From: Escherichia phage NTNC80A
Sequence record: OP018999.1
Strand: one strand, 5' to 3'
Length of the DNA: 43,714 nt
The translations under genes were made by a program, and so were the position numbers. The notes below the pieces were generated by a model, which worked only from the letters and a program-made list of their open reading frames with translations, was not told the origin of the DNA and ran no database searches. Shown piece after piece: positions 19,151 to 41,001 of this stretch (position 1 is the stretch's first letter; every line of letters begins with the position of its first letter).

Positions 19151-20150
19151 ACTTCGTAGCCTGTTTAAAGACTCCGAGGTGCTTGACGCAATCGAGCAAG
19201 CTACCGACGAGAAAGGTAATGTTAACTATAATGAAATGGCGCACATCCTGTCTGCGCATCCGGTTGGCAAGAATATCACTCGCCAACTCGCTCGCTATTG
19301 GCATGGTCAGTTCAAGACGAAGAAGAAGAATGGTGACAACTACCAGTCACTTCTTCCAGAGAACAAACGCATTAAGGAGCAACGCAAGTTGCGCACTCCT
19401 GATCGCTATGAAGATCTGGCTGTTAACCCTCTGCCTGACTCGCCTCATCGAAGCATTCTGGTAATCCCTGATACCCACGCACCGTATGAGCATCCAGACA
19501 CGCTGGAGTTCTTGGCTGCTGTGGCTGCACGGTTCAAGCCTGATACCGTTGTTCACCTTGGTGACGAGGCAGACAAACATGCTATGTCGTTCCATGACTC
19601 AGACCCGAACCTTGACTCTGCTGGCATGGAACTTGAGAAGGCTCGTGTCTTTATGGAGAAGCTGCACCGTATGTTCCCTGTGATGCGCCTGTGTCACTCC
19701 AACCACGGCTCTATGCACTTCCGCAAGGCACACTCTCATGGCATCCCTGTACAGTACCTGCGTACATACCGTGAGGTGTTCTTCCCGCATGGGGGTGGTG
19801 AGCGTTGGGAGTGGCAGCACACGCATATTCTGGAGCTACCGAACGGTGAGCAGGTTGCATTCAAACACCAGCCAGCAGGTGCAGTTCTGACCGATGCAGC
19901 ACACGAGCGCATGAATCTGGTGTGTGGTCACTTGCATGGCAAGATGTCTATCGAGTACGCCAGTAATAGTCACGAGCAGTATTGGGCGGCTCAAGGTGGT
20001 TGCCTGATTGACGAGGGTTCTCGTGCATTCTCCTATGGTCGTGAGTCCAAGTACAAACCAGCGCTAGGCTGTCTGGTGATTATCGAGGGAGTACCTCAGA
20101 TCATCCCGATGCAGACAAATAGCGAAGGTCGCTGGGTCGGCAAGATTTAG
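19140..20150 (+). CDS. calcineurin-like metallophosphoesterase with ~100-aa N-terminal extension
   Basis: ATG 19140 after SD AGGAGG; motifs PDTHAP (DxH), LGDEAD (GDxxD), SNHG (GNH-like), GHLHG (GHxH). Confidence 0.85.
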   Translation: MVAKLRSLFKDSEVLDAIEQATDEKGNVNYNEMAHILSAHPVGKNITRQLARYWHGQFKTKKKNGDNYQSLLPENKRIKEQRKLRTPDRYEDLAVNPLPDSPHRSILVIPDTHAPYEHPDTLEFLAAVAARFKPDTVVHLGDEADKHAMSFHDSDPNLDSAGMELEKARVFMEKLHRMFPVMRLCHSNHGSMHFRKAHSHGIPVQYLRTYREVFFPHGGGERWEWQHTHILELPNGEQVAFKHQPAGAVLTDAAHERMNLVCGHLHGKMSIEYASNSHEQYWAAQGGCLIDEGSRAFSYGRESKYKPALGCLVIIEGVPQIIPMQTNSEGRWVGKI

Positions 20151-20167
20151 GTGACACTATAGAATAA
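20145..20167 (+). promoter_or_regulatory. phage RNAP promoter (SP6-type)
   Basis: atttaggtgacactatagaataaag; +1 G at 20162; overlaps the phosphoesterase stop; transcript starts with hairpin gggcagg-tattgg-cttgccc. Confidence 0.7.
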
Positions 20168-20217
20168 AGGGCAGGTATTGGCTTGCCCTTGATTGTATAG
20201 TGAATGGAGGAATTAAT

Positions 20218-20664
20218 ATGTCAGATATTAAAGTAGGTGACAAAGTACGTCGTAAAACAGAACAACCTAGTGCAGTTTGGACAGGCGCTTGTAGTGTAGG
20301 AAATATCAAACCTTATTCTGATGTTACTGTTAGTTGTGCAGCTGATGATGTGATAGCTTTCGTTGAAGTACAAGGCACTTGGCTGGCAGGCAACTACCAT
20401 GTAGTGTCAGAAGAAAGTACAAACAAGATAGATATGGTTAAACAACCTAAGCACTACGAGTTCTTCGAAGGTGTAGAGGTAATCACTATTATTGCCCGTA
20501 GCATGACCGAGAAGCAATTCGCTGGGTACTGCATGGGTAATGCTTTGAAGTATCGTCTGCGTGCAGGTAAGAAATTCAACACCGAAGAAGACCTGAAGAA
20601 AGCAGACTACTACAAAGAGTTATTCCAGAAGCACCGTCACGAATGTATTGATGAGGATATTTGA
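20218..20664 (+). CDS. hypothetical protein (148 aa), DUF3310-like C-terminal region (tentative)
   Basis: ATG 20218 with SD GGAGG; C-terminal HYEFFEGVEVITI...GNALKYRLR...DLKKADYY pattern. Confidence 0.65.
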   Translation: MSDIKVGDKVRRKTEQPSAVWTGACSVGNIKPYSDVTVSCAADDVIAFVEVQGTWLAGNYHVVSEESTNKIDMVKQPKHYEFFEGVEVITIIARSMTEKQFAGYCMGNALKYRLRAGKKFNTEEDLKKADYYKELFQKHRHECIDEDI

Positions 20665-20665
20665 T

Positions 20666-21613
20666 ATGAATATCTTTGAGTTCCTAGGTCTTCCAGAAGA
20701 CCACCGTAATCACCCATTCATGCTGGTGAAGCATCGCGGTGAAGTTCCTGAGAAGAAATTAACTTTTCCATGTTATGCACAGGTGAAACGAGATGGGATA
20801 TTTAGTGCTGTTGTGGTCCGTAATGATGGTGCTGTTGCCATCTTTGGTCGTACTGGTAAAAAGCTCACAAATGTTGAAGACTTGGAAAAGCTATTTAGTG
20901 TATTTCCTGTCGGGTTGTATCTTGGTGAGTTGCAATCTATGGCTGTTGATATGTATCTGGAAGCTCTATCAGGTGTAGTAAACCCTAATCGTACAGAGCC
21001 ACTTGATTTCATAGGCCAGCAGATTAAAGACAACCTGTATATCGACTTCTTCGATATGTTAACCATTAAGGCATTCCATGATGGATTCACTGATGTTTCT
21101 TATCTCAAACGTTACGATGCTTTACATCGTCGCATCGGCGCTCATCTTAGCGGGTACAACGCTATCCTTCCTATCACTCCTTGCCATAATGAGCGAGAAG
21201 TTGAAGCGTTTGCGCAAGAGCAAATAGATGCAGGCCGAGAGGGTGCTGTATTTAAACTTGATGTGGAGTATGAAAGTGGGCACAAGGGCTATCGTCAAAC
21301 GAAGATCGTGCGTATGGTATCTTACGACCTCACCTGTATTGGGTGGGAGGAAGGAAAGGGTAAGTATAAAGGCAAGGTAGCTAACCTCATTTTCAAATGG
21401 AAGGGTGGTAAGTCTGTTAAGGCTATGCTTGGACGTGGCTGGTCACATGAGGATGCAGCCCAAATGTATCACGATATTAAACACGGTGGCGAAATGAATG
21501 TCATCGGGAAGATCTTCGCTGTCAAGGCGTTGCAGGAATCTAGTAAGGGAGTCCTGAGACTTCCCAAGGTTTCTGAGTTACGTCACGATAAGGAGGTTCC
21601 TGATGTCTATTGA
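20666..21613 (+). CDS. ATP-dependent DNA ligase
   Basis: Adenylation motif AQVKRDGIF (KxDG); size and position like T7-type ligases; ATG 20666 after SD GAGGA. Confidence 0.88.
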   Translation: MNIFEFLGLPEDHRNHPFMLVKHRGEVPEKKLTFPCYAQVKRDGIFSAVVVRNDGAVAIFGRTGKKLTNVEDLEKLFSVFPVGLYLGELQSMAVDMYLEALSGVVNPNRTEPLDFIGQQIKDNLYIDFFDMLTIKAFHDGFTDVSYLKRYDALHRRIGAHLSGYNAILPITPCHNEREVEAFAQEQIDAGREGAVFKLDVEYESGHKGYRQTKIVRMVSYDLTCIGWEEGKGKYKGKVANLIFKWKGGKSVKAMLGRGWSHEDAAQMYHDIKHGGEMNVIGKIFAVKALQESSKGVLRLPKVSELRHDKEVPDVY

Positions 21614-21728
21614 TTTGAACAAAGAGCAACTTGAATTGTTAATAGAGGCCATTGAGCAATACTATTACATGTGTGGCTATGAGTCAAAAGAATTAGACTC
21701 CTTATATTCGAAACTAAAAGGAGGGTAA
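21603..21728 (+). CDS. micro-protein (41 aa), hypothetical
   Basis: ATG overlapping the ligase 3' end; MSIDLNKEQLELLIEAIEQYYYMCGYESKELDSLYSKLKGG. Confidence 0.3.
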   Translation: MSIDLNKEQLELLIEAIEQYYYMCGYESKELDSLYSKLKGG

Positions 21729-21730
21729 TT

Positions 21731-21928
21731 ATGTCTTTTGATTCCATGAAGGCAACTCGTGCCGTTGAGGTGGCAGAGGCTATCTTCGAAACTTTATCCT
21801 GTGGCATGGAAGTGCCATATACTTTACTGGCTGATGCAGAAGAACTTGGTCTTTCTGTAGAAGCTATCCAAGAGAAGGTGGAAGAACTCTATGGTACAGA
21901 TGAAGAAGAAACCGACGATTTCATTTGA
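21731..21928 (+). CDS. small acidic protein (65 aa), hypothetical
   Basis: ORF track; SD AAGGAGGG upstream; ends EEETDDFI. Confidence 0.5.
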   Translation: MSFDSMKATRAVEVAEAIFETLSCGMEVPYTLLADAEELGLSVEAIQEKVEELYGTDEEETDDFI

Positions 21929-21932
21929 AGGG

Positions 21933-22061
21933 ATGGAGATGCTTGAGATGATTCTCAAGCCTTCTTCTCCGAAAGTAACTAAGACTCATGAAGAGTTAAT
22001 CGTAGATGAAGTGAAGCGTTACATTATGGATTGTGTCAAGGCACAACTGGTGGTTCAATGA
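21933..22061 (+). CDS. micro-protein (42 aa), hypothetical
   Basis: ATG 21933 after SD GAAGGGA; stop overlaps the next start. Confidence 0.3.
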   Translation: MEMLEMILKPSSPKVTKTHEELIVDEVKRYIMDCVKAQLVVQ

Positions 22062-22519
22062 TACGTCCAGCTTCCTTCCTAGATATTCCTGAGATTATTA
22101 ATCTCGGAGACAAGTATGTAGAAGAAGAAGTCAAGGTGGTGGCACATCATTCTGCGTCGTGGAATGCGGAACAAAGTGCAGCTAACCTGTGTGCCTCTCT
22201 AATCAGAGAGGATTTATTCCTGTGGGTCGCTGTGGATGAAGGGCAGGTTGTAGGATTCCTGTGGGCTGGTTATCACGACCTAGCACCTTGGACGCCAGTG
22301 CGTGTTGCATCTGACATTCTCTTCTATGTTGTACCGGAGAAGCGAGGGACGCTACTTGGTATGCGACTAATCAAGGCATACAAGCAATGGGCTTTTGAGA
22401 AAGAGTGTGCTGAGGTACGCATGTCAATAGCCTCTGGTATTAACGAGGAACGTGTTGGACGTATGTATAGGCGACTAGGCTTTGAGACGTTCGGCACTGT
22501 GTATAACTTAAAACTTTAA
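22058..22519 (+). CDS. GNAT-fold acetyltransferase-like protein (tentative)
   Basis: 153 aa; VVPEKRGTLLGMRLI resembles GNAT motif A and RMYRRLGFETFG the C-terminal GNAT beta-hairpin; the call is by eye only. Confidence 0.55.
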   Translation: MIRPASFLDIPEIINLGDKYVEEEVKVVAHHSASWNAEQSAANLCASLIREDLFLWVAVDEGQVVGFLWAGYHDLAPWTPVRVASDILFYVVPEKRGTLLGMRLIKAYKQWAFEKECAEVRMSIASGINEERVGRMYRRLGFETFGTVYNLKL

Positions 22520-22528
22520 GGAGACAAC

Positions 22529-22738
22529 ATGGGTGTCGTGAAGAAGGCATTTAAAGCAATTGGTCTTGCACCGGAGGCTCCTCGTATTGAAGCAGCCAAA
22601 GTGCCAGCACAACAATTAGAGCGCCAGCCTGAGACGGAAGCAGAAGATGTAACGCTGGGTCAGGAAGATGACACCACAACCACCTCTCGTGGTAAGCGTG
22701 GGCTTGTTCGTCCGGTTGCATCTAGTTTAGGAGTATAA
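22529..22738 (+). CDS. small protein (69 aa) upstream of portal, possibly a minor virion protein
   Basis: ORF track; SD AGGAGA; low-complexity acidic centre and basic C-terminus. Confidence 0.45.
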   Translation: MGVVKKAFKAIGLAPEAPRIEAAKVPAQQLERQPETEAEDVTLGQEDDTTTTSRGKRGLVRPVASSLGV

Positions 22739-22739
22739 T

Positions 22740-24290
22740 ATGAGGCAAGACACCGACCTTGAATATGGTGGCAAGCGGTCTAAGATACCTAAGCTGTGGG
22801 AGAAGTTATCAACTAAGCGTAACCCATTTATGGATAGGGCTAAACATTATGCCAGACTCACCTTGCCTTACCTTATGAATGAGGAGGGCGATAACAATAC
22901 ATCTCAGAACGGATGGCAAGGTGTCGGTGCTCAAGCCACTAACCACTTAGCTAACAAGTTAGCGCAAGTTCTCTTTCCTGCTCAACGCTCTTTCTTCCGA
23001 GTTGACTTGACAGCAAAAGGAGAGAAGATATTAAACAACAGAGGTCTTAAGAAGACCAAATTAGCTACACTGTTTGCTCAAGTAGAGACTGCGGCTATGA
23101 AGCAATTAGAACAGCGGCAGTTCCGCCCAGCGGTAGTGGAGTGTTTCAAGCATTTGATTGTTGCTGGCAACTGTATGTTGTACAAGCCAAGCAAGGGTGC
23201 AATCAGTGCTATACCTATGCACCACTATGTAGTTAATAGAGATGCCAATGGTGAACTGCTGGATATTATCTTACTGCAAGAGAAGGCTCTCAAGACATTC
23301 GACCCTGCAACTCGCATGGCTATTGAAGTAGGCATGAAAGGTAAGAAGTGCAAAGACAGTGATAATGTAAAACTCTACACACACGCCAAGTACGAGGGTG
23401 AAGGGTTTTGGGAATTAAATCAATCAGCAGATGATATTCCTATTGGTAAATCTAGTAGAATCAAAGCTGATAAGCTCCCATTCATCCCTCTTACTTGGAA
23501 GAGGTCATATGGGGAAGATTGGGGTCGCCCTCTTGCAGAGGATTATTCTGGAGACTTGTTCGTAATCCAATTCTTATCAGAAGCAGTTGCTCGTGGCGCT
23601 GCTTTGATGGCCGACATTAAATACCTGATTCGTCCAGGTGCTCAAACAGATGTAGACCATTTTGTTAACTCAGGGACAGGTGAAGTAATTACTGGCGTGG
23701 AAGAAGATATTCATATTGTACAATTGGGTAAGTATGCAGACCTAACACCAATAAGTGCTGTGCTAGAGGTTTATACCAGACGCATCGGCGTAGTCTTTAT
23801 GATGGAGACTATGACGCGACGAGATGCAGAACGTGTAACTGCCGTAGAGATACAGCGAGATGCTCTTGAGATTGAGCAGAACATGGGTGGCGTATATTCA
23901 CTCTTTGCTACGACCATGCAGACACCAGTGGCTATGTGGGGTCTGCTTGATGCCGGAGACTCTTTCACTAGTGACCTAGTAGACCCTGTTATTATCACAG
24001 GTATTGAAGCGTTAGGTCGCATGGCAGAGTTGGATAAGCTGGCTAACTTCGCTCAGTATATGGCATTACCTATGAGTTGGCCTGAGCCAGTACAGGCAGC
24101 AGTGAACTGGCCTGATTATATGGATTGGGTTCGTGGTCAGATCTCTGCTGAACTTCCATTCCTAAAATCAGAAGAGCAGATGAAGAAAGAACAAGCACAG
24201 ATGGCACAAGCACAGCAAGAGCAGATGCTTAATGAAGGGGTAGCTAAAGCTGTTCCGGGTGTCATTCAACAAGAACTTAAGGAGGCGTAA
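22740..24290 (+). CDS. portal (head-tail connector) protein
   Basis: 516 aa, immediately 5' of the scaffold and capsid genes in T7-type order. Confidence 0.9.
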   Translation: MRQDTDLEYGGKRSKIPKLWEKLSTKRNPFMDRAKHYARLTLPYLMNEEGDNNTSQNGWQGVGAQATNHLANKLAQVLFPAQRSFFRVDLTAKGEKILNNRGLKKTKLATLFAQVETAAMKQLEQRQFRPAVVECFKHLIVAGNCMLYKPSKGAISAIPMHHYVVNRDANGELLDIILLQEKALKTFDPATRMAIEVGMKGKKCKDSDNVKLYTHAKYEGEGFWELNQSADDIPIGKSSRIKADKLPFIPLTWKRSYGEDWGRPLAEDYSGDLFVIQFLSEAVARGAALMADIKYLIRPGAQTDVDHFVNSGTGEVITGVEEDIHIVQLGKYADLTPISAVLEVYTRRIGVVFMMETMTRRDAERVTAVEIQRDALEIEQNMGGVYSLFATTMQTPVAMWGLLDAGDSFTSDLVDPVIITGIEALGRMAELDKLANFAQYMALPMSWPEPVQAAVNWPDYMDWVRGQISAELPFLKSEEQMKKEQAQMAQAQQEQMLNEGVAKAVPGVIQQELKEA

Positions 24291-25198
24291 TGTCTTTTGA
24301 AATTATTAATGAACCTGTAAGTCAGTCTGACGTTACTGAATCTAAGGAGGCTGCTGATGTTACTACTACCGACACTGATTCTACTGTTGATTCTTCTGGC
24401 AGCGATGTACAAGCTGACACAGGCAGTACAGACGTACAAGACACCGGAGGAGCTGATATTGGAGAAGATGCAGGACAAGGAGAAGCATCTAGTGGATCGG
24501 ATGATAAATCTGAGCCAGATGGTTCCTCGGACGAAGATGTACGATTCTTCTTTGGCGAACAAGAAGTAGAAATTGAAATTCCTGAGGATGTATCCACTGC
24601 CTTGAAAGAGAAAGGCATTGATGCAATGCAGGTAGCCAAGGAGCTTTACGGTGAAGGCGGTAAGTTTGAGCTTAAGGAAGAGACAAAGCAGAAGCTGTAT
24701 GACGCATTTGGAAAGTTCGCAGTAGACGCTTATCTGAATGGACTAAAGGCATCTAACGAGGCATTCCTCATTAAATCTGAAGCCCAAGCTAAAGAAGCAG
24801 AAGCAGCAGATGCCCAACGCTTTACCGATATTGCATCTGAGGTTGGCGGGGAAGAAGGCTGGTCACGCCTTGAGGAGTGGGCGCTTGAAACCCTCTCTGA
24901 TGAGGAGCTAACCGCGTTTAATGCTGTTATGGCCTCTGGCAACCAGTACCTGCAACAATATGCTGTTCGTGAACTGGAGGGTCGTCGTAAGCAGGCACAG
25001 GGGGATGATAAGCCATCCCTGATTGAGCCATCAGCACCTGCTAAGGCTAATGAAGAGAATGGCCCACTGACGCGAGATCAGTACGTTCAAGCAATCGCAA
25101 CTCTTAGCCAGAAGTACGGCAATGACCGTAAAGCTATGGCAGAAGCTCAGGCTAAACTGGACGCCCGTCGCCGTGCTGGCATGGCTCGCGGTATCTAA
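24290..25198 (+). CDS. scaffolding protein
   Basis: Highly acidic low-complexity N-region and helical C-region, between portal and capsid. Confidence 0.8.
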   Translation: MSFEIINEPVSQSDVTESKEAADVTTTDTDSTVDSSGSDVQADTGSTDVQDTGGADIGEDAGQGEASSGSDDKSEPDGSSDEDVRFFFGEQEVEIEIPEDVSTALKEKGIDAMQVAKELYGEGGKFELKEETKQKLYDAFGKFAVDAYLNGLKASNEAFLIKSEAQAKEAEAADAQRFTDIASEVGGEEGWSRLEEWALETLSDEELTAFNAVMASGNQYLQQYAVRELEGRRKQAQGDDKPSLIEPSAPAKANEENGPLTRDQYVQAIATLSQKYGNDRKAMAEAQAKLDARRRAGMARGI

Positions 25199-25204
25199 TT
25201 CAGT

Positions 25205-25227
25205 ATTTACTGGACACTATAGAAGGG
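25205..25227 (+). promoter_or_regulatory. phage RNAP promoter (consensus) driving the capsid gene
   Basis: atttactggacactatagaaggg; +1 G at 25222. Confidence 0.8.
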
Positions 25228-26477: not shown

Positions 26478-26486
26478 TAACCTATG

Positions 26487-26523
26487 CCCTATCTACCTTG
26501 CGTAGGTAGGGTTCTTTTGTTTA
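26487..26523 (+). terminator. phage-type terminator after the capsid gene
   Basis: ccctatctacc-ttgcg-taggtaggg hairpin then TTCTTTTGTTT; same position as T7 T-phi. Confidence 0.7.
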
Positions 26524-26532
26524 GGAGGATTC

Positions 26533-27273
26533 ATGCCTTTAATTCAAAATACAAGTGATGTTGGACGTATCATGGCGGAGGCTTCCTTCAATATCATTGA
26601 TAGCAAGCTGGAAGCAGTTAACCTGTGTATGCGAGCTATCGGTCGTGAGGGTGTGGATTCCCTTGACTCTGGCGACTTAGATGCGGAAGATGCCAATAAG
26701 ATTATTGATATTGTATCTCAGCGATTCCAATACAACAAAGGCGGCGGTTGGTGGTTTAACCGGGAACCTAATTGGTTATTGAAACCGGATACAAATGGAG
26801 AGGTTAATCTTCCCAATGATTGCCTAGCAGTGTTACAGTGCTATGCTTTGGGTGAACGTAAAGTACCTATGACTATGCGAGCAGGTAAGTTGTACTCTGT
26901 GTGGAATCACTCATTTGATATGACTAAGTACGTGAATCGTGATGGTCGTATCCGACTGACACTAGTAATGCTTCTACCCTTCGAGCACCTACCTGCAAGT
27001 GTGATGCAAGCAATTGCATACCAAGCTGCTGTAGAGTTTATTGTGTCTAAGGATGCAGATAAGACTAAACTCCAAGCGCATCAACAAATAGCAGCGCAGC
27101 TTATGATTGATGTACAATCTGAGCAATCCTCTCAGAAGAGACTCAACATGCTGGTGCACAACCCTACGCAGCGCAACTTTGGTATCATGGCAGGTGGCTC
27201 TCAGAATGTCCCGGCCTTCTCTCATTCACCTTATGATACTTATCCAATCAGACCATGGGAGGTTGATCGCTGA
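26533..27273 (+). CDS. tail tubular protein A
   Basis: Synteny after the capsid gene. Confidence 0.8.
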   Translation: MPLIQNTSDVGRIMAEASFNIIDSKLEAVNLCMRAIGREGVDSLDSGDLDAEDANKIIDIVSQRFQYNKGGGWWFNREPNWLLKPDTNGEVNLPNDCLAVLQCYALGERKVPMTMRAGKLYSVWNHSFDMTKYVNRDGRIRLTLVMLLPFEHLPASVMQAIAYQAAVEFIVSKDADKTKLQAHQQIAAQLMIDVQSEQSSQKRLNMLVHNPTQRNFGIMAGGSQNVPAFSHSPYDTYPIRPWEVDR

Positions 27274-29678
27274 TGGAAGTACAAGGTTCATTAGGTCGTC
27301 AGATTCAAGGTATCAGTCAACAACCAGCGGCTGTAAGATTAGATGGTCAATGCACTGATATGATCAATATGGTTCCTGATATAGTTAATGGCACACAGTC
27401 TCGCATGGGAAGCATACACATTGCTAGACTTCTTGATTCCGGTGATGAAAATATGGCAACACATCATTACCGCAGAGGTGACGGTGTAGAGGAATATTTC
27501 TTCATCATGAAGAAAGGTAGCGTGCCAGAAATATTTGACAAAGAAGGCCGTAAATGTACTGTGACCTCTCAGGATGCACCTATGGCTTATCTTGCTGAGG
27601 TTGTGAATCCGAGAGAAGATGTGCAGTTCATGACTATCGCTGATGTAACATTTATGCTTAACAGGCGTAAAGTGGTGAAAGCTCGTAGTGATAAGTCTCC
27701 AAAAGTGGGAAACAAGGCTATTGTGTTTTCTGCCTACGGACAGTATGGTACTTCGTACACCATAACTATTAACGGCGAGAAAGCGGCGACCTTCAAAACT
27801 CCAGATGGTGGTGAACCTAGTCATGTAGAACAGATTCGTACTGAGTACATAGCCACTAAGTTATATGAGAGTTTACAGACATGGAGTAAAGCGTCACAGT
27901 ACACCTTGCAAAGAGAAGGCACTAGTATCTACATTGAAACTAAAGATGGGAGTGATTTCACTATTACCACCACAGATGGGGCCAAAGGTAAGGATTTGGT
28001 TGCTATAAAAAACCGAGTATCATCTACAGACTTACTTCCCTCAAGAGCACCAGAAGGGTACAAGGTACAGGTGTGGCCTATAGGGAGTAAACCAGAATCC
28101 CGGTATTGGTTAGAGGCTGTACCTAAAGAGGGAGGTAACTTAGTTGCTTGGCAAGAAACTATTGCAGCAGATGTGTTACTTGGCTTTGATAAAGACACTA
28201 TGCCTTATATTATAGAGCGTACAGGTATTGTCGGAGGTGTGGCACAGTTTAAGATACGACATGGTGATTGGGAAGATCGTAAGGTAGGAGATGACCTGAC
28301 TAACCCTATGCCTTCTTTTATTGATGAAGACGTACCACAGGCGATTGGTGGTATGTTCATGATGCAGAACCGTCTTTGTGTTACAGCAGGCGAAGCCGTC
28401 ATAGCAACTAGGACTTCTCATTTCTTTGACTTCTTCCGCTTCTCCGCAGTGTCTGAGGTGGCAACAGACCCATTCGATATTTTCTCAGATGCAAGTGAGG
28501 TGTACCAGCTTAAACATGCAGTAACCCTAGATGGGGCAACGGTATTATTCTCAGACACATCTCAGTTCATACTTCCTGGGGATAAAGTATTAGAGAAATC
28601 TAATGTTATACTCAAGCCTGCTACAACTTTCGAAGTGGACAATAGGGTGCCACCTGTGGCAACTGGTGAGTCTGTAATGTTTGCTACAAGCGAGGGTGCT
28701 TACTCTGGTGTGCGTGAGTTTTATACCGACTCTTACAGCGACACTAAGAAAGCACAGGCTGTTACTAGTCATGTTAACAAGTTGATAGAAGGTAATATAA
28801 CTCATATGGTTGCTAGCACTAATATCAACAGGTTACTTGTGGTAACAGACAGGGATCCTAATATTGTCTATTGCTATGACTGGTTGTGGCAAGGGACAGA
28901 TCGTGTACAATCTGCATGGCATAAGTGGGTGTGGCCTAAAGATACTTTGATTCGCTCTATGTTCTATTCCTCAGAGCTATTGTATCTCCTTGTAGAACGG
29001 GGCAATACTGGTTTGTATCTAGAGGTGATGGATATGGGTGATGCTCTTACTTATGGTTTAGTTGACAGGATTAGACTGGATAGGCAAGCAGAGCTAATCT
29101 TCACCTATGATGCTAACAATGACCAATGGGTTTCTAATGAGTTACCTTGGAAGCCTACTGACCCAACCTTACTTGATTGTGTGATAATTCAAGGGTGGCC
29201 TGCTTATATTGGTGGTTCTTTTCATTTTGAATATGATGAAGCTAGTAATAAGCTGATTACAACTTTTGACTTATCAGAGGAAGGTACTAATGCTGTAGCT
29301 GTCGTAGGGCAGTTGTATCAGCAGGAGTTTGAGCCAACACAGGTCGTTATTCGAGATAACCAAGATAGAGTATCCTACATAGATGTGCCAGTGGTAGGCT
29401 TGGTTCATCTTAACTTGGATAAATACCCTGACTTTGAAGTTCATATCAAGAACTTAAAGAGTGGTAAACTAAGAAAGGCTTTGGCATCTAACAGGAAAGG
29501 TGGGGCACTTAATAATATTGTTGGTTATGTCAAGCCAGAAGAGGGGTCATTCAAATTTCCACTAAGATCCCTCAGTACAGATACTGTTTATCGTATCATT
29601 GTTAACTCCCCTCATACATTCCAACTCAGGGATATTGAGTGGGAAGGTTCGTATAACCCAACTAAGAGGAGGGTATAA
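27273..29678 (+). CDS. tail tubular protein B
   Basis: 801 aa, synteny and size like T7 gp12. Confidence 0.88.
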   Translation: MEVQGSLGRQIQGISQQPAAVRLDGQCTDMINMVPDIVNGTQSRMGSIHIARLLDSGDENMATHHYRRGDGVEEYFFIMKKGSVPEIFDKEGRKCTVTSQDAPMAYLAEVVNPREDVQFMTIADVTFMLNRRKVVKARSDKSPKVGNKAIVFSAYGQYGTSYTITINGEKAATFKTPDGGEPSHVEQIRTEYIATKLYESLQTWSKASQYTLQREGTSIYIETKDGSDFTITTTDGAKGKDLVAIKNRVSSTDLLPSRAPEGYKVQVWPIGSKPESRYWLEAVPKEGGNLVAWQETIAADVLLGFDKDTMPYIIERTGIVGGVAQFKIRHGDWEDRKVGDDLTNPMPSFIDEDVPQAIGGMFMMQNRLCVTAGEAVIATRTSHFFDFFRFSAVSEVATDPFDIFSDASEVYQLKHAVTLDGATVLFSDTSQFILPGDKVLEKSNVILKPATTFEVDNRVPPVATGESVMFATSEGAYSGVREFYTDSYSDTKKAQAVTSHVNKLIEGNITHMVASTNINRLLVVTDRDPNIVYCYDWLWQGTDRVQSAWHKWVWPKDTLIRSMFYSSELLYLLVERGNTGLYLEVMDMGDALTYGLVDRIRLDRQAELIFTYDANNDQWVSNELPWKPTDPTLLDCVIIQGWPAYIGGSFHFEYDEASNKLITTFDLSEEGTNAVAVVGQLYQQEFEPTQVVIRDNQDRVSYIDVPVVGLVHLNLDKYPDFEVHIKNLKSGKLRKALASNRKGGALNNIVGYVKPEEGSFKFPLRSLSTDTVYRIIVNSPHTFQLRDIEWEGSYNPTKRRV

Positions 29679-30415
29679 TGGCGATAATGGCGACAGTAGG
29701 GTCAAGCCTAGCCAGCATGTTCTCCAGTAGTGCAGGTGCTGCTGCGGCTAGTAGCGCGGCAGCTAGCACGGCTGGCAGTGCCGCCGCTGGGAGTAGTGGT
29801 GTGCTTGGCTCTATTGGTAGTTTCTTAGGGGGAAGTTCTGCTGGGTTTTCTAATGCAGGTCTGCTATCTGCTGGTCTTCAAGGTTTGAATATGCTAGGTG
29901 GTCTGTTCGGAGGACAAGATACAGCCAAGGCTATGAAGAAGGCACAGGAAGAGGAGTGGAGGCAAAGGTTAGAAGCCACACGTGAGGCTTACTCCTCTGT
30001 AGCAGATGCAGAAAGGTTTGCTGCAAAGCAGTATCATTCTGACTTCCTTAATAATCAAATTTCACTGATGCAGCAGCGCGCGCAAGTCGCAGTAATGGCA
30101 GGAGCTACTGGAACAGGTGGCAGTTCCATCACATCCATGCTAAATGATTTGACGGCAGAGGGTGGTCGCAATCAGTCAACCATTATAGATAATTATGAGA
30201 ATCAGCAAATCAACTTTGCCAATCAGTTGAAGTCTATTCAACGAGGTGGTCAGATGCAGATGCGAACGTTTGACAAGCCCTCGGCTTTGGGTACTTTGGT
30301 TAAAGATCTTCCAAGTATTGCATCGGCATACGTCACTGGTAGTAAATCAGGCATGGCACTTGGCAAGGCTATCACTGAATCTCGTACTTATTCATCTGGA
30401 ACTAGAGGAGTCTAA
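29678..30415 (+). CDS. internal virion protein (small)
   Basis: Gly/Ala/Ser-rich N-terminus; first of three ejection-protein genes. Confidence 0.75.
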   Translation: MAIMATVGSSLASMFSSSAGAAAASSAAASTAGSAAAGSSGVLGSIGSFLGGSSAGFSNAGLLSAGLQGLNMLGGLFGGQDTAKAMKKAQEEEWRQRLEATREAYSSVADAERFAAKQYHSDFLNNQISLMQQRAQVAVMAGATGTGGSSITSMLNDLTAEGGRNQSTIIDNYENQQINFANQLKSIQRGGQMQMRTFDKPSALGTLVKDLPSIASAYVTGSKSGMALGKAITESRTYSSGTRGV

Positions 30416-38676: not shown

Positions 38677-40571
38677 TGGCTAAGGCTAGAGAATCACAAG
38701 CGGAGGCTCTTGCCAGATGGGAGATGCTACACGAGTTACAGCAGACCTTCCCTTATACCGCAGAAGGTTTGCTTCTCTTTGCTGATACAGTTATTCATAA
38801 TTTAATTGCAGGTAGTCCTCATCTGATTCGTATGCAGGCAGACATCTTGAAGTTCCTATTCTACGGACACAAGTATCGCCTCATCGAAGCGCCCCGTGGT
38901 ATCGCTAAAACTACACTGGCAGCAATCTATACGGTGTTCCGTATCATTCATGAGCCTCATAAGCGCATCATGGTTGTATCCCAAAACGCCAAGCGAGCAG
39001 AGGAAATTGCAGGTTGGGTGGTCAAAATATTCCGAGGATTGGACTTCCTAGAGTTTATGCTGCCAGACATCTACGCTGGCGACCGTGCATCCGTTAAGGC
39101 ATTCGAGATTCACTATACACTGCGTGGAAGCGACAAGTCCCCTTCTGTATCCTGCTACTCTATTGAAGCAGGTATGCAGGGTGCTCGTGCAGACATCATT
39201 CTAGCAGATGACGTTGAATCTATGCAGAATGCGCGTACCGCAGCAGGCCGTGCATTGCTTGAGGAATTGACCAAGGAGTTTGAATCTATCAACCAGTTTG
39301 GTGATATTATCTACCTTGGTACACCACAGAATGTGAACTCTATTTACAACAACCTCCCTGCACGCGGTTATTCTGTTCGCATCTGGACTGCTCGTTACCC
39401 TTCGGTAGAGCAAGAGCAATGTTATGGTGACTTCCTTGCACCTATGATCGTGCAGGATATGAAGGACAACCCAGCATTGCGAACAGGTTATGGTTTGGAT
39501 GACAACAGTGGCGCTCCTTGTGCACCTGAAATGTATGATGATGATGTCCTGATTGAGAAGGAAATCTCACAAGGTGCTGCTAAGTTCCAGCTTCAGTTCA
39601 TGCTTAACACTCGCATGATGGATGCTGACAGATACCCATTACGCCTGAACAATCTAATCTTCACCTCGTTCGGTACAGAGGAAGTCCCTGTGATGCCTAC
39701 GTGGAGTAATGATTCCATAAACATCATTGGTGATGCACCTAAGTATGGTAACAAGCCTACGGATTTCATGTACAGACCTGTAGCTCGCCCATACGAATGG
39801 GGTGCTGTCTCCCGCAAGATTATGTATATTGACCCTGCGGGTGGCGGTAAGAACGGGGATGAGACGGGTGTAGCCATCGTATTCCTGCACGGCACATTCA
39901 TTTATGTGTATCAGTGCTTTGGTGTACCTGGCGGATACCGAGAATCGTCCCTGAATCGCATTGTGCAGGCCGCAAAGCAAGCGGGTGTTAAAGAGGTATT
40001 CATTGAGAAAAACTTTGGTCATGGCGCGTTTGAGGCTGTTATAAAGCCATACTTTGAACGAGAATGGCCTGTGACCATTGAAGAGGATTACGCCACTGGT
40101 CAAAAAGAACTCCGTATCATAGAGACATTGGAGCCGCTGATGACCGCGCATAGACTTATCTTCAATGCCGAGATGGTCAAGTCGGATTTCGCTTCAGTAC
40201 AGAACTACCCGCTTGAACTGCGGATGTCTTATAGTCTGTTCCATCAAATGTCGAACATCACTATTGAGAAGAACAGCCTCAGGCATGATGACCGCTTAGA
40301 CGCCCTGTATGGCGCTGTGCGTCAATTAACTTCTCAGATAGACTATGACGAGGTTACTCGTATTAATCGCCTCAGAGCGCAGGAGATGCGCGATTATATA
40401 CAGGCGATGAACACACCTAAACTTCGTCGGGCTATGCTGTACGGAGATTATGGTGATGAGCGAAGAACAACCAACACATCCTTAGCAATGCAGCAGAGAG
40501 TTTACGGGCAGAATTGGAGGAACCGCTCTGGTTCTAGAAATACACTTTCTTCAAGGATTTCAAGGATTTAG
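38676..40571 (+). CDS. terminase large subunit (T7 gp19-like)
   Basis: Walker A PRGIAKTT, GARADIILADDVE and IYLGTPQ match T7 gp19 motifs as recalled; ATG 38676 after SD AAGGAGGA. Confidence 0.95.
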   Translation: MAKARESQAEALARWEMLHELQQTFPYTAEGLLLFADTVIHNLIAGSPHLIRMQADILKFLFYGHKYRLIEAPRGIAKTTLAAIYTVFRIIHEPHKRIMVVSQNAKRAEEIAGWVVKIFRGLDFLEFMLPDIYAGDRASVKAFEIHYTLRGSDKSPSVSCYSIEAGMQGARADIILADDVESMQNARTAAGRALLEELTKEFESINQFGDIIYLGTPQNVNSIYNNLPARGYSVRIWTARYPSVEQEQCYGDFLAPMIVQDMKDNPALRTGYGLDDNSGAPCAPEMYDDDVLIEKEISQGAAKFQLQFMLNTRMMDADRYPLRLNNLIFTSFGTEEVPVMPTWSNDSINIIGDAPKYGNKPTDFMYRPVARPYEWGAVSRKIMYIDPAGGGKNGDETGVAIVFLHGTFIYVYQCFGVPGGYRESSLNRIVQAAKQAGVKEVFIEKNFGHGAFEAVIKPYFEREWPVTIEEDYATGQKELRIIETLEPLMTAHRLIFNAEMVKSDFASVQNYPLELRMSYSLFHQMSNITIEKNSLRHDDRLDALYGAVRQLTSQIDYDEVTRINRLRAQEMRDYIQAMNTPKLRRAMLYGDYGDERRTTNTSLAMQQRVYGQNWRNRSGSRNTLSSRISRI

Positions 40572-40572
40572 T

Positions 40573-40595
40573 ATTTACTGGACACTATAGGAGGA
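40573..40595 (+). promoter_or_regulatory. phage RNAP promoter (consensus)
   Basis: atttactggacactataggagg; +1 G at 40590. Confidence 0.75.
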
Positions 40596-40720
40596 AGACC
40601 AAGAGAATAAAGGAATATTATAGGATAATATAGGATTACCTAGGTTATAGGTATACCTTAGTATGGGTGTACTCCTGTACACCCTATTCCTACTTACTTA
40701 TACTAATATCATAGGAGGTA
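40596..40720. other. AT-rich leader sharing ATAGGATTACCTAGG with the 7021-7035 region; candidate secondary origin
   Basis: Exact 15-mer at 40630-40644 and 7021-7035, both just downstream of a phage promoter. Confidence 0.3.
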
Positions 40721-40722
40721 TA

Positions 40723-41001
40723 ATGGCTAATGACTATAGTAATCAACCCTTAACAGGACGATACGATAGGAAACAAGTACAGCCTATCAGTGAACACTTG
40801 ATGGTTCCAAGTGTTAACACTGATATTGATTTATATAACCCAGCAAAACAAGGTAGTGTTATTAATGATGCTACAAAATCTGGTAAACAGAAAGGTGCTA
40901 TGATTGCTTCAGGACTGGGTGTGATTATGTTAGCTCAAGGAAGTAAACCTACAGACAAGTGGTATCAAACAACGACTGAACAGATTATTGTTCCACAATA
41001 A
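40723..41001 (+). CDS. small protein, paralog 1 of the SGKQ(K/E)G family (92 aa)
   Basis: ATG 40723 with SD AGGAGG (ORF track 40663); ...TKSGKQKGAMIASGLGVIMLAQGSKPTDKWYQ. Confidence 0.6.
   Translation: MANDYSNQPLTGRYDRKQVQPISEHLMVPSVNTDIDLYNPAKQGSVINDATKSGKQKGAMIASGLGVIMLAQGSKPTDKWYQTTTEQIIVPQ

Follow-up and report, generated by a model that had tools for sequence, protein, structure and literature searches.

What does a small acetyltransferase gene do beside the portal gene of a short-tailed phage, and to which molecule would its product pass an acetyl group? The question is raised by Escherichia phage NTNC80A (sequence record OP018999.1), whose 43,714-nucleotide sequence, analysed at its full length and called the window below, is the genome, complete or nearly so, of a K1E/SP6-like phage (Autographiviridae, Molineuxvirinae, Vectrevirus), with 86–96% nucleotide identity to K1E, LL11, CrRp3 and many records named ‘Vectrevirus’. 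One of its genes encodes a GNAT-fold protein orthologous to gp27 of K1E and SP6 (coordinates in Table 1). The gene call itself is ordinary, and the annotation is already known in relatives. Taken alone it matters little; what matters more is that several therapeutic phage genera (Vectrevirus, Zindervirus and relatives) keep, within their virion module, an enzyme that is conserved and apparently active. Here we examine the fold and active site of this protein and the positions of its relatives, and weigh what it may acetylate; tentatively, we favour a role in virion morphogenesis.

Fold and active-site residues of the gp27-type GNAT

The sequence-only reading of this DNA had proposed a GNAT fold on the strength of a motif-A-like string, VVPEKRGTLLGMRLI, and a C-terminal one, RMYRRLGFETFG. 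Both are present, at residues 91–105 and 135–146, respectively, and the fold is supported in several ways. Three Pfam models score above their curated cut-offs: Acetyltransf_1 (40.3 bits against a cut-off of 20.7), Acetyltransf_7 (36.9 against 27) and Acetyltransf_10 (24.0 against 23.6). The phrog_1249 profile, labelled ‘acetyltransferase’, matches residues 1–151 with an E value of 3.5e-54, the only other PHROG matched being phrog_3810. These profile matches are far beyond chance. The AlphaFold2 model (predicted local distance difference test, pLDDT, 90.5) has the order β1-α1-α2-β2-β3-β4-α3-β5-α4-β6-β7, which is the full GNAT fold, and its top structural matches are all GNATs. The outcomes named beforehand as damaging to the proposal, the lack of any GNAT match in profile searches or the loss of the acetyl-CoA motif from the alignment, were both looked for and neither was obtained.

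The acetyl-CoA motif lies in the β4–α3 loop, where RGTLLG (residues 96–101) is in register, in HMMER alignments, with RGGGIG of 4j3g, a protein also solved with acetyl-CoA (4jwp), and with RGKGLG of PA4866. Set against the motif A pattern Q/R-x-x-G-x-G/A, the loop reads R96-G97-T98-L99-L100-G101: the outer positions are kept and the central glycine is replaced by leucine, at a position that is variable in the family. The family consensus of the loop is R-G-[GST]-x-x-[AG], and gp27-type GNATs carry the signature [DE]-x-LFY-[IV]-x-PE-x-RG. Since the pyrophosphate loop of GNATs contacts the cofactor through backbone amides, the altered loop is probably functional. Conservation was followed in a close set of 42 homologues and in a distant set of 141 representatives with less than 40% identity, drawn from an exhaustive profile search that gave 1,255 proteins at E < 1e-10. 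R96 is invariant in the close set and is an arginine in 138 of the 141 distant sequences; G97 is nearly invariant among close homologues and is kept in 123 distant ones; position 101 is glycine or alanine, and is so in 125 of the distant representatives.

Two further residues are candidates for catalytic roles. D86, in strand β4, is invariant in the close set and acidic in 128 of the distant sequences (aspartate in 105, glutamate in 23). It aligns with an aspartate of DpA, a polyamine acetyltransferase, and with the glutamate of the TVEHSVYV segment of PA4866, which we take to serve as catalytic base in enzymes of the phosphinothricin acetyltransferase type. Y137, in helix α4, aligns with a DpA position that is tyrosine in 8a9o and phenylalanine in the substrate complex 8a9n. 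It is not universal, the distant set having tyrosine in 104, phenylalanine in 16 and leucine in 13 sequences. Taken together, the gene probably encodes an active GNAT-fold acyl-CoA N-acyltransferase.

Homologues were found by tblastn in 245 phage records. The closest of the orthologues compared, that of Citrobacter phage CrRp3, has 98.7% amino acid identity, K1E gp27 89.5% and SP6 gp27 71.9%; all three are equal in length and in neighbours, and no difference of substance separates them from the protein of the window. The ATG start was preferred over an in-frame TTG at 22031 because all homologues start MIR…, and it shares bases with the TGA of the preceding 56-codon open reading frame (ATGA). 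The label acetyltransferase is already carried by K1E gp27, in RefSeq, and by the genes of SP6, CrRp3, LL11, VEc3, UAB_Phi78, Era103 (gp33) and many other records. A pattern scan that reaches close relatives only found none in the genomes of 185,579 bacterial and archaeal species, and a bacterial origin of the gene was set aside on that ground.

Some annotations and gene models around this family deserve separate mention. Among the distant homologues P0066, P0069, P0075, P0089 and P0087, some are tandem double GNATs of 318–385 residues. P0087 (277 residues) joins an unrelated N-terminal domain of about 150 residues to the C-terminal two-thirds of a GNAT, and could have arisen in gene calling, by fusion to a structural gene that lies upstream. 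In K1E, two further proteins, gp41 and gp42 (92 and 95 residues; K1E 40199–40777), bear the RefSeq label ‘acetyl-CoA acetyltransferase’, which looks implausible at that size; they are unrelated to the gp27 GNAT.

The gene slot in the virion module

The sequence-only reading had placed the gene at the boundary between replication and structural genes, flanked by three micro-genes (21603–22061). The local order agrees: DNA ligase is followed by the micro-genes, all of which stand as open reading frames (two with PHROG matches, the 41-codon one with none), then by the GNAT gene, a gp7.3-like gene, the portal and the scaffold. At every close IMG/VR locus whose contig spans those genes, the series ligase, m65, m56, GNAT, gp7.3-like, portal, scaffold is found. 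From ligase to scaffold it also occurs in K1E, Era103 (Eracentumvirus), Vibrio phage R25D, Pseudomonas phage Ulina01 (Colwellvirinae) and ECBP5 (Gajwadongvirus), and it persists down to 31% identity of the GNAT. Upstream of the gene the company changes. In Rhizobium phage RHEph15 the GNAT gene lies 3′ of the RNA polymerase gene and 5′ of the portal, and at loci L038–L040 and L051 a terminase gene is followed by the GNAT, a small ‘MG…’ protein of about 105 residues and the portal. The triad of GNAT, gp7.3-like protein and portal is thus kept across subfamilies of Autographiviridae and with different upstream genes.

Other phrog_1249 members occupy other places: between scaffold-like and major capsid genes (L046), adjoining a capsid gene (L041), flanked by genes for a tail-fibre protein and for a virion structural protein (L047/L048), and after tail tube B, before the internal virion proteins (L043 and Roseobacter phage CRP-4). 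Alteromonas phage ZP6 has been described with a GNAT-annotated gene following tail tube B, in that same slot (PMC8515928). In every locus examined, the phrog_1249 gene was found within the virion module.

The timing of expression can be estimated from phage promoters. The promoter core ACACTATAG occurs 12 times in the window, always on the plus strand, against 0.4 occurrences expected. A scan of the window found no further such phage promoter between the nearest one 5′ of the GNAT gene and the next, 5′ of the major capsid gene (Table 1); therefore, ligase, GNAT, gp7.3-like, portal and scaffold genes would form one phage-polymerase unit. Sharing this unit with portal and scaffold, the GNAT would be made by the phage RNA polymerase when particle building starts.

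The position immediately upstream of a gp7.3-like gene, here called slot 7, is occupied by GNATs of other families too. In LUZ19 the order is hypothetical gene, GNAT (Rac, gp28, PHROG 3986), small virion protein, portal, scaffold, promoter, capsid; Rac has the GNAT fold and a slot identical to that of the window GNAT, 5′ of a small virion protein and the portal. Rac-like GNATs fill slot 7 in phiKMV-like, gh-1-like and Bonnellvirus phages (a homologue search with Rac gave a single cluster, and the Rac-like set was taken from phage tblastn). The window protein shares the slot of the Rac family but not its sequence membership: it falls into a different PHROG (1249 against 3986), and BLASTP between the two gave E 7.3, that is, no pairwise similarity. 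Homology is found at the profile level only, where comparison of the Rac-like and window families gave a probability of 97% and E 1.1e-10; the sole other PHROG matched by Rac is phrog_1249, at E 4.9e-4.

T7 gene 7 (‘host range’, PHROG 2746; L053:1131–1532) lies in the same slot, in the order 6.7, 7, 7.3, (7.7), 8. Its product has no Pfam family. In Ghunavirus 17A, which belongs to T7’s own subfamily, a Rac-like GNAT stands at the place of T7 gene 7 (gp6, 6.5, 6.7, GNAT, 7.3, 8, 9). Profile–profile comparison of T7 gp7 gave a probability of 40% (E 3.1e-4) with the window family and 25% (E 7.7e-4) with the Rac-like one. Escherichia phage smaasur gp7 matches phrog_3986 (1.5e-43), phrog_2746 (2e-12) and phrog_1249 (2.8e-5), with Pfam Acetyltransf_1 above cut-off, and so bridges, in terms of profile matches, the families of Rac, T7 gp7 and the window GNAT. 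For a homologue of T7 gp7, the AlphaFold2 model (pLDDT 90.6) shows the GNAT order β1-α1-α2-β2-β3-β4-α3-β5, then a terminal strand. T7 gene 7 thus appears to encode a GNAT-derived protein; it lacks helix α4 and the R-G loop, both of which the window GNAT has, and for this reason is probably not an enzyme. In phage phiPsa17, the slot-7 GNAT was undetected in a deep virion proteome that saw gp6.7, gp7.3 and even the scaffold (PMC4517105), which fits a non-structural role.

In T7, the slot after tail tube B belongs to gp13. Hardies et al. reported that this protein, IVP-A, matches acetyltransferases by HHpred, that it is required for morphogenesis and not retained in the virion, and that P22 and epsilon15 carry standard IVP-A homologues at that position (PMC4819975). 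In P22 the equivalent late-operon point, between the tail needle gene 26 and the ejection gene 7, is taken by gene 14. T7 gp13 (PF11090, 138 residues) and P22 gp14 (DUF2824, 151 residues) are, like the window GNAT, small late proteins of podovirus virion modules, but their slot in their own genomes differs from that of the window GNAT. The latter keeps the R-G cofactor loop that T7 gp13 lacks, and its YVVPEKRG is in register with YLPEIRG of P22 gp14. In the window, tail tube B (27273–29678) abuts the IVP-B homologue (29678–30415, phrog_805) with no gene between them, hence SP6-like phages would have no gene in the T7 gp13 slot; the window GNAT lies 5 kb upstream of that point. PF11090 and DUF2824 gave no match to the window GNAT at E ≤ 1, the T7 gp13 profile had no sequence match in the PDB, and T7 gp13 was not among the best 50 structural neighbours listed in BFVD. 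Matches in the PhageMaP preprint were to Bas63 gene names only, with no statement on T7 gp7 or gp13.

Candidate acceptors of the acetyl group

The acceptor is not readable from the sequence or fold of the GNAT. Among those suggested by the sequence-only reading, a virion or assembly protein gains from the gene context and a host protein is possible on the precedent of Rac, while an antibiotic-like molecule or an aminoacyl-nucleotide found little support. From the gene context, we tentatively favour an acetyltransferase of proteins that is made late, is itself non-structural and is linked to virion morphogenesis, as a functional equivalent of IVP-A. The protein would belong to a lineage of GNAT and GNAT-derived genes embedded in the virion-morphogenesis module of short-tailed phages, and would move the acetyl group from acetyl-CoA to an amino group on a protein of the assembly or ejection machinery, as a counterpart of T7 gp13 in which catalysis is intact. 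The group might be passed to the neighbouring gp7.3-like protein, to the portal-proximal core or to the internal virion proteins. If the substrate is indeed a virion or ejection protein, a post-translational step would be added to podovirus assembly.

Several points weigh against a morphogenetic role. Gene position is circumstantial evidence. The searchable literature yielded no biochemical, genetic or functional study of SP6 or K1E gp27 or of any phrog_1249 member, and the one characterised slot-7 protein, LUZ19 Rac, has its effect in the host cell rather than on virions (PMC7552054). The best PDB profile match of the family is a small-molecule enzyme, the polyamine acetyltransferase DpA of Acinetobacter baumannii (8a9o, E 1.4e-11). 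The neighbouring gp7.3-like protein, one of the candidate acceptors, has a variable N-terminus across subfamilies. As to IVP-A, hhalign placed T7 gp13 in register with the GNAT family at E 0.03 and 9e-4, with a probability of at most 23%; hmmsearch between the two gave nothing significant in either direction; and P22 gp14 reached E 0.19–0.25, the gp14 homologues retrieved being all at least 94% identical. Because these comparisons of our own are weak, homology to IVP-A rests on Hardies et al. and on the shared position. Finally, the R-G loop is missing from both T7 gp13 and T7 gp7; should their function be the same one, catalysis may be dispensable for it.

A different function is suggested by Rac, namely a host take-over enzyme acting on host proteins, for which the slot beside the portal would be historical and not functional; we consider this rather unlikely for the window GNAT. 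Expression of LUZ19 Rac leads to the RNA polymerase alpha subunit being cleaved, a phenotype that depends on residues of the acetyl-CoA pocket (PMC7552054) and is the sole experiment on a slot-7 GNAT. The identical slot and the profile-level kinship described above speak for such a function, and the RefSeq annotation of K1E lists no host RNA polymerase inhibitor. However, alpha cleavage is specific to the genus Phikmvvirus, and LKA1, which has a GNAT at the same place, gives none (PMC7552054). The window protein is outside the Rac PHROG, and pairwise BLAST finds nothing. A Rac-like role would also leave unexplained why unrelated podoviruses have the gp27 family between scaffold and capsid, or after tail tube B and before the internal virion proteins, and why the triad survives rearrangement. 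The SP6-like RNA polymerase is made early, whereas a switch made alongside the portal would be late. Were the substrate a host protein after all, Rac-type host shut-off would extend to enterobacterial phages.

The morphogenetic reading can be widened, although the wider form is doubtful: short-tailed phages would share an ancient and hitherto overlooked morphogenetic step, the acetylation of a small virion protein, ejected or internal, by a late non-structural GNAT, without which particles would not become infectious; from the one gene concerned, T7 gene 7, T7 gene 13, P22 gene 14 and LUZ19 Rac would all descend in diverged or degenerate form. We regard the link from SP6/K1E gp27 to Rac, to T7 gene 7 and to the IVP-A slot as a lead open to testing, not as a demonstrated result. 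The context of gp27 ties it to three poorly understood genes: T7 gene 7, T7 gene 13/P22 gene 14, and Rac, itself of unsettled mechanism.

It is quite unlikely that the enzyme acts on a small molecule (a polyamine, an aminoglycoside or an amino-acid-like antimetabolite), either tuning the polyamine pool during DNA packaging or detoxifying an inhibitor. DpA and the PA4866-type enzymes, bacterial proteins acting on small molecules, align with the window GNAT over its full length, with equivalent positions for D86, motif A and Y137, and the single-sequence matches of the protein are PA4866 and phosphinothricin-type enzymes (E 2.6e-4). Conserved acidic residues (D9, E23/E24 and D86) would suit a cationic substrate, and one relative is labelled ‘aminoglycoside acetyltransferase’ in GenBank. 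The identity to these enzymes is 15–25%, though, the margin of DpA over unrelated GNATs is small, and their structural similarity to the window GNAT is no higher than that of protein N-terminal acetyltransferases. R81, aligned with a PA4866 arginine, lacks conservation within the family. Weak matches to AAC(6′) and ArsN1 appear in NCBIfam, but all its equivalogs score far below cut-off, the best with 27.9 against 124 (PRK03624); memberships of the AAC(6′), ArsN1, RimI, MshD and YpeA-like groups were rejected (AAC_6p_group_E 25.1 of 140 bits, RimI 21.7 of 86.4, ArsN1a 20 of 170). The strict embedding in virion modules, from phages of Enterobacteria to those of Roseobacter, is unlike that of resistance or metabolic genes, and the scan of bacterial genomes, within its reach, found no close relatives.

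Improbable, too, is a non-catalytic assembly chaperone, whose GNAT fold would only bind small virion or ejection proteins, as T7 gp13 and gp7 may do. The confident model of T7 gp7 has the GNAT strand order without helix α4 and the R-G loop, and T7 gp13, also lacking the loop, is yet reported as needed for morphogenesis (PMC4819975). In the gp27 family, in contrast, the PE-x-RG loop, D86 and the α4 motif Y-x-x-x-G-F are kept over the distant set, a conservation hardly to be expected unless the protein catalyses a reaction or, at the least, binds the cofactor.

A toxin-like GNAT of the TacT/AtaT type, which would arrest host translation by acetylating aminoacyl-tRNA, is extremely improbable: the protein is as small as those toxins and the small neighbouring genes could be antitoxin-like, but its best match among PADLOC defence models has E 0.038, the micro-genes have no Pfam family and none is of the DUF1778 antitoxin type, so that a defence or toxin role was rejected; moreover, tRNA-binding toxins have basic surfaces whereas this protein is mildly acidic (isoelectric point 5.65, charge −3 at pH 7), and late expression with structural genes would harm the phage’s own translation.

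Neighbouring genes and features

Table 1. Features at and around the GNAT gene of the window.
Feature	Position	Strand	Basis
SP6-type phage RNA polymerase promoter ATTTAGGTGACACTATAGAA, nearest 5′ of the GNAT gene	20145..20164	+	flanks match SP6 consensus
ATP-dependent DNA ligase, 321 residues, last replication-type gene of the unit	20648..21613	+	93% identity to K1E gp24 ‘putative DNA ligase’
Micro-gene, 41 residues	21603..21728	+	open reading frame, strong AAGGAGG site upstream
Micro-gene m65, 65 residues, acidic, homologue of K1E gp25	21731..21928	+	phrog_5860, E 4.3e-39
Micro-gene m56, 56 residues, homologue of K1E gp26	21891..22061	+	phrog_6507, E 3.1e-36, full length
GNAT-fold N-acyltransferase, 153 residues, orthologue of K1E and SP6 gp27	22058..22519	+	ATG 22058 to stop
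Asp86, strand β4, candidate catalytic base	22313..22315	+	conservation, alignment
β4–α3 loop PEKRGTLLG, residues 93–101, pyrophosphate-binding ‘motif A’	22334..22360	+	alignment, conservation
Tyr137, helix α4, candidate general acid	22466..22468	+	alignment to DpA
gp7.3-like small virion protein, 69 residues, directly downstream of GNAT	22529..22738	+	phrog_9033, E 3.8e-15; phrog_1320, E 3.2e-10
Portal protein (head–tail connector), 516 residues	22740..24290	+	89% identity to K1E gp29
Scaffolding protein, last gene of the unit	24290..25198	+	homologue of K1E gp30 ‘head scaffolding protein’
Next phage promoter ATTTACTGGACACTATAGAAG, 5′ of the major capsid gene	25205..25225	+	core scan

The gp7.3-like protein has one of its matches in the group labelled ‘host range and adsorption protein’ (phrog_1320), and has a C-terminal motif, GKRGLVRPVASSLGV, in common with T7 gp7.3. 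Across subfamilies, the common part of these proteins is limited to the C-terminal G-K-[RK]-x-L-x-x-[PA]-x-x-S/A-x-G-[LI]-x-[VI]; their second residue is G, S or A, which carries no weight for or against a site of N-terminal acetylation. In T7, the C-terminal segment of gp7.3 has been resolved at the junction of adaptor and nozzle, where K84 and K85 touch the DNA end (PMC11784390).

Shine–Dalgarno-like sequences were found 5′ of all three micro-genes. The first, of 41 codons, overlaps the end of the ligase gene and has no Pfam or PHROG match. Tblastn traced it, at 87–89% amino acid identity, to K1E, which carries it without annotation, to the IMG/VR contigs L025 and L028, and to no others. CrRp3, LL11 and most other relatives do not have it, and it behaves like a small gene of the presence/absence kind. 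The second, m65, is kept in all SP6/K1E-like loci and in Era103. It overlaps m56 by 38 nucleotides (21891–21928) in a different frame, and since K1E gp25 and gp26 are annotated with an equal overlap and the PHROG match of m56 begins at residue 1, the overlap seems real and conserved.

Two hairpins were noted near the ends of this region. One, strong at about −27 kcal/mol (20155–20202), begins within the initially transcribed region of the promoter nearest 5′ of the GNAT gene and might either stabilise the 5′ end or serve as a processing site of the RNase III type. The other, a GC-rich hairpin followed by a T-run at 26485–26520, lies just 3′ of the major capsid gene and is likely the main late terminator, equivalent to T-phi of T7.

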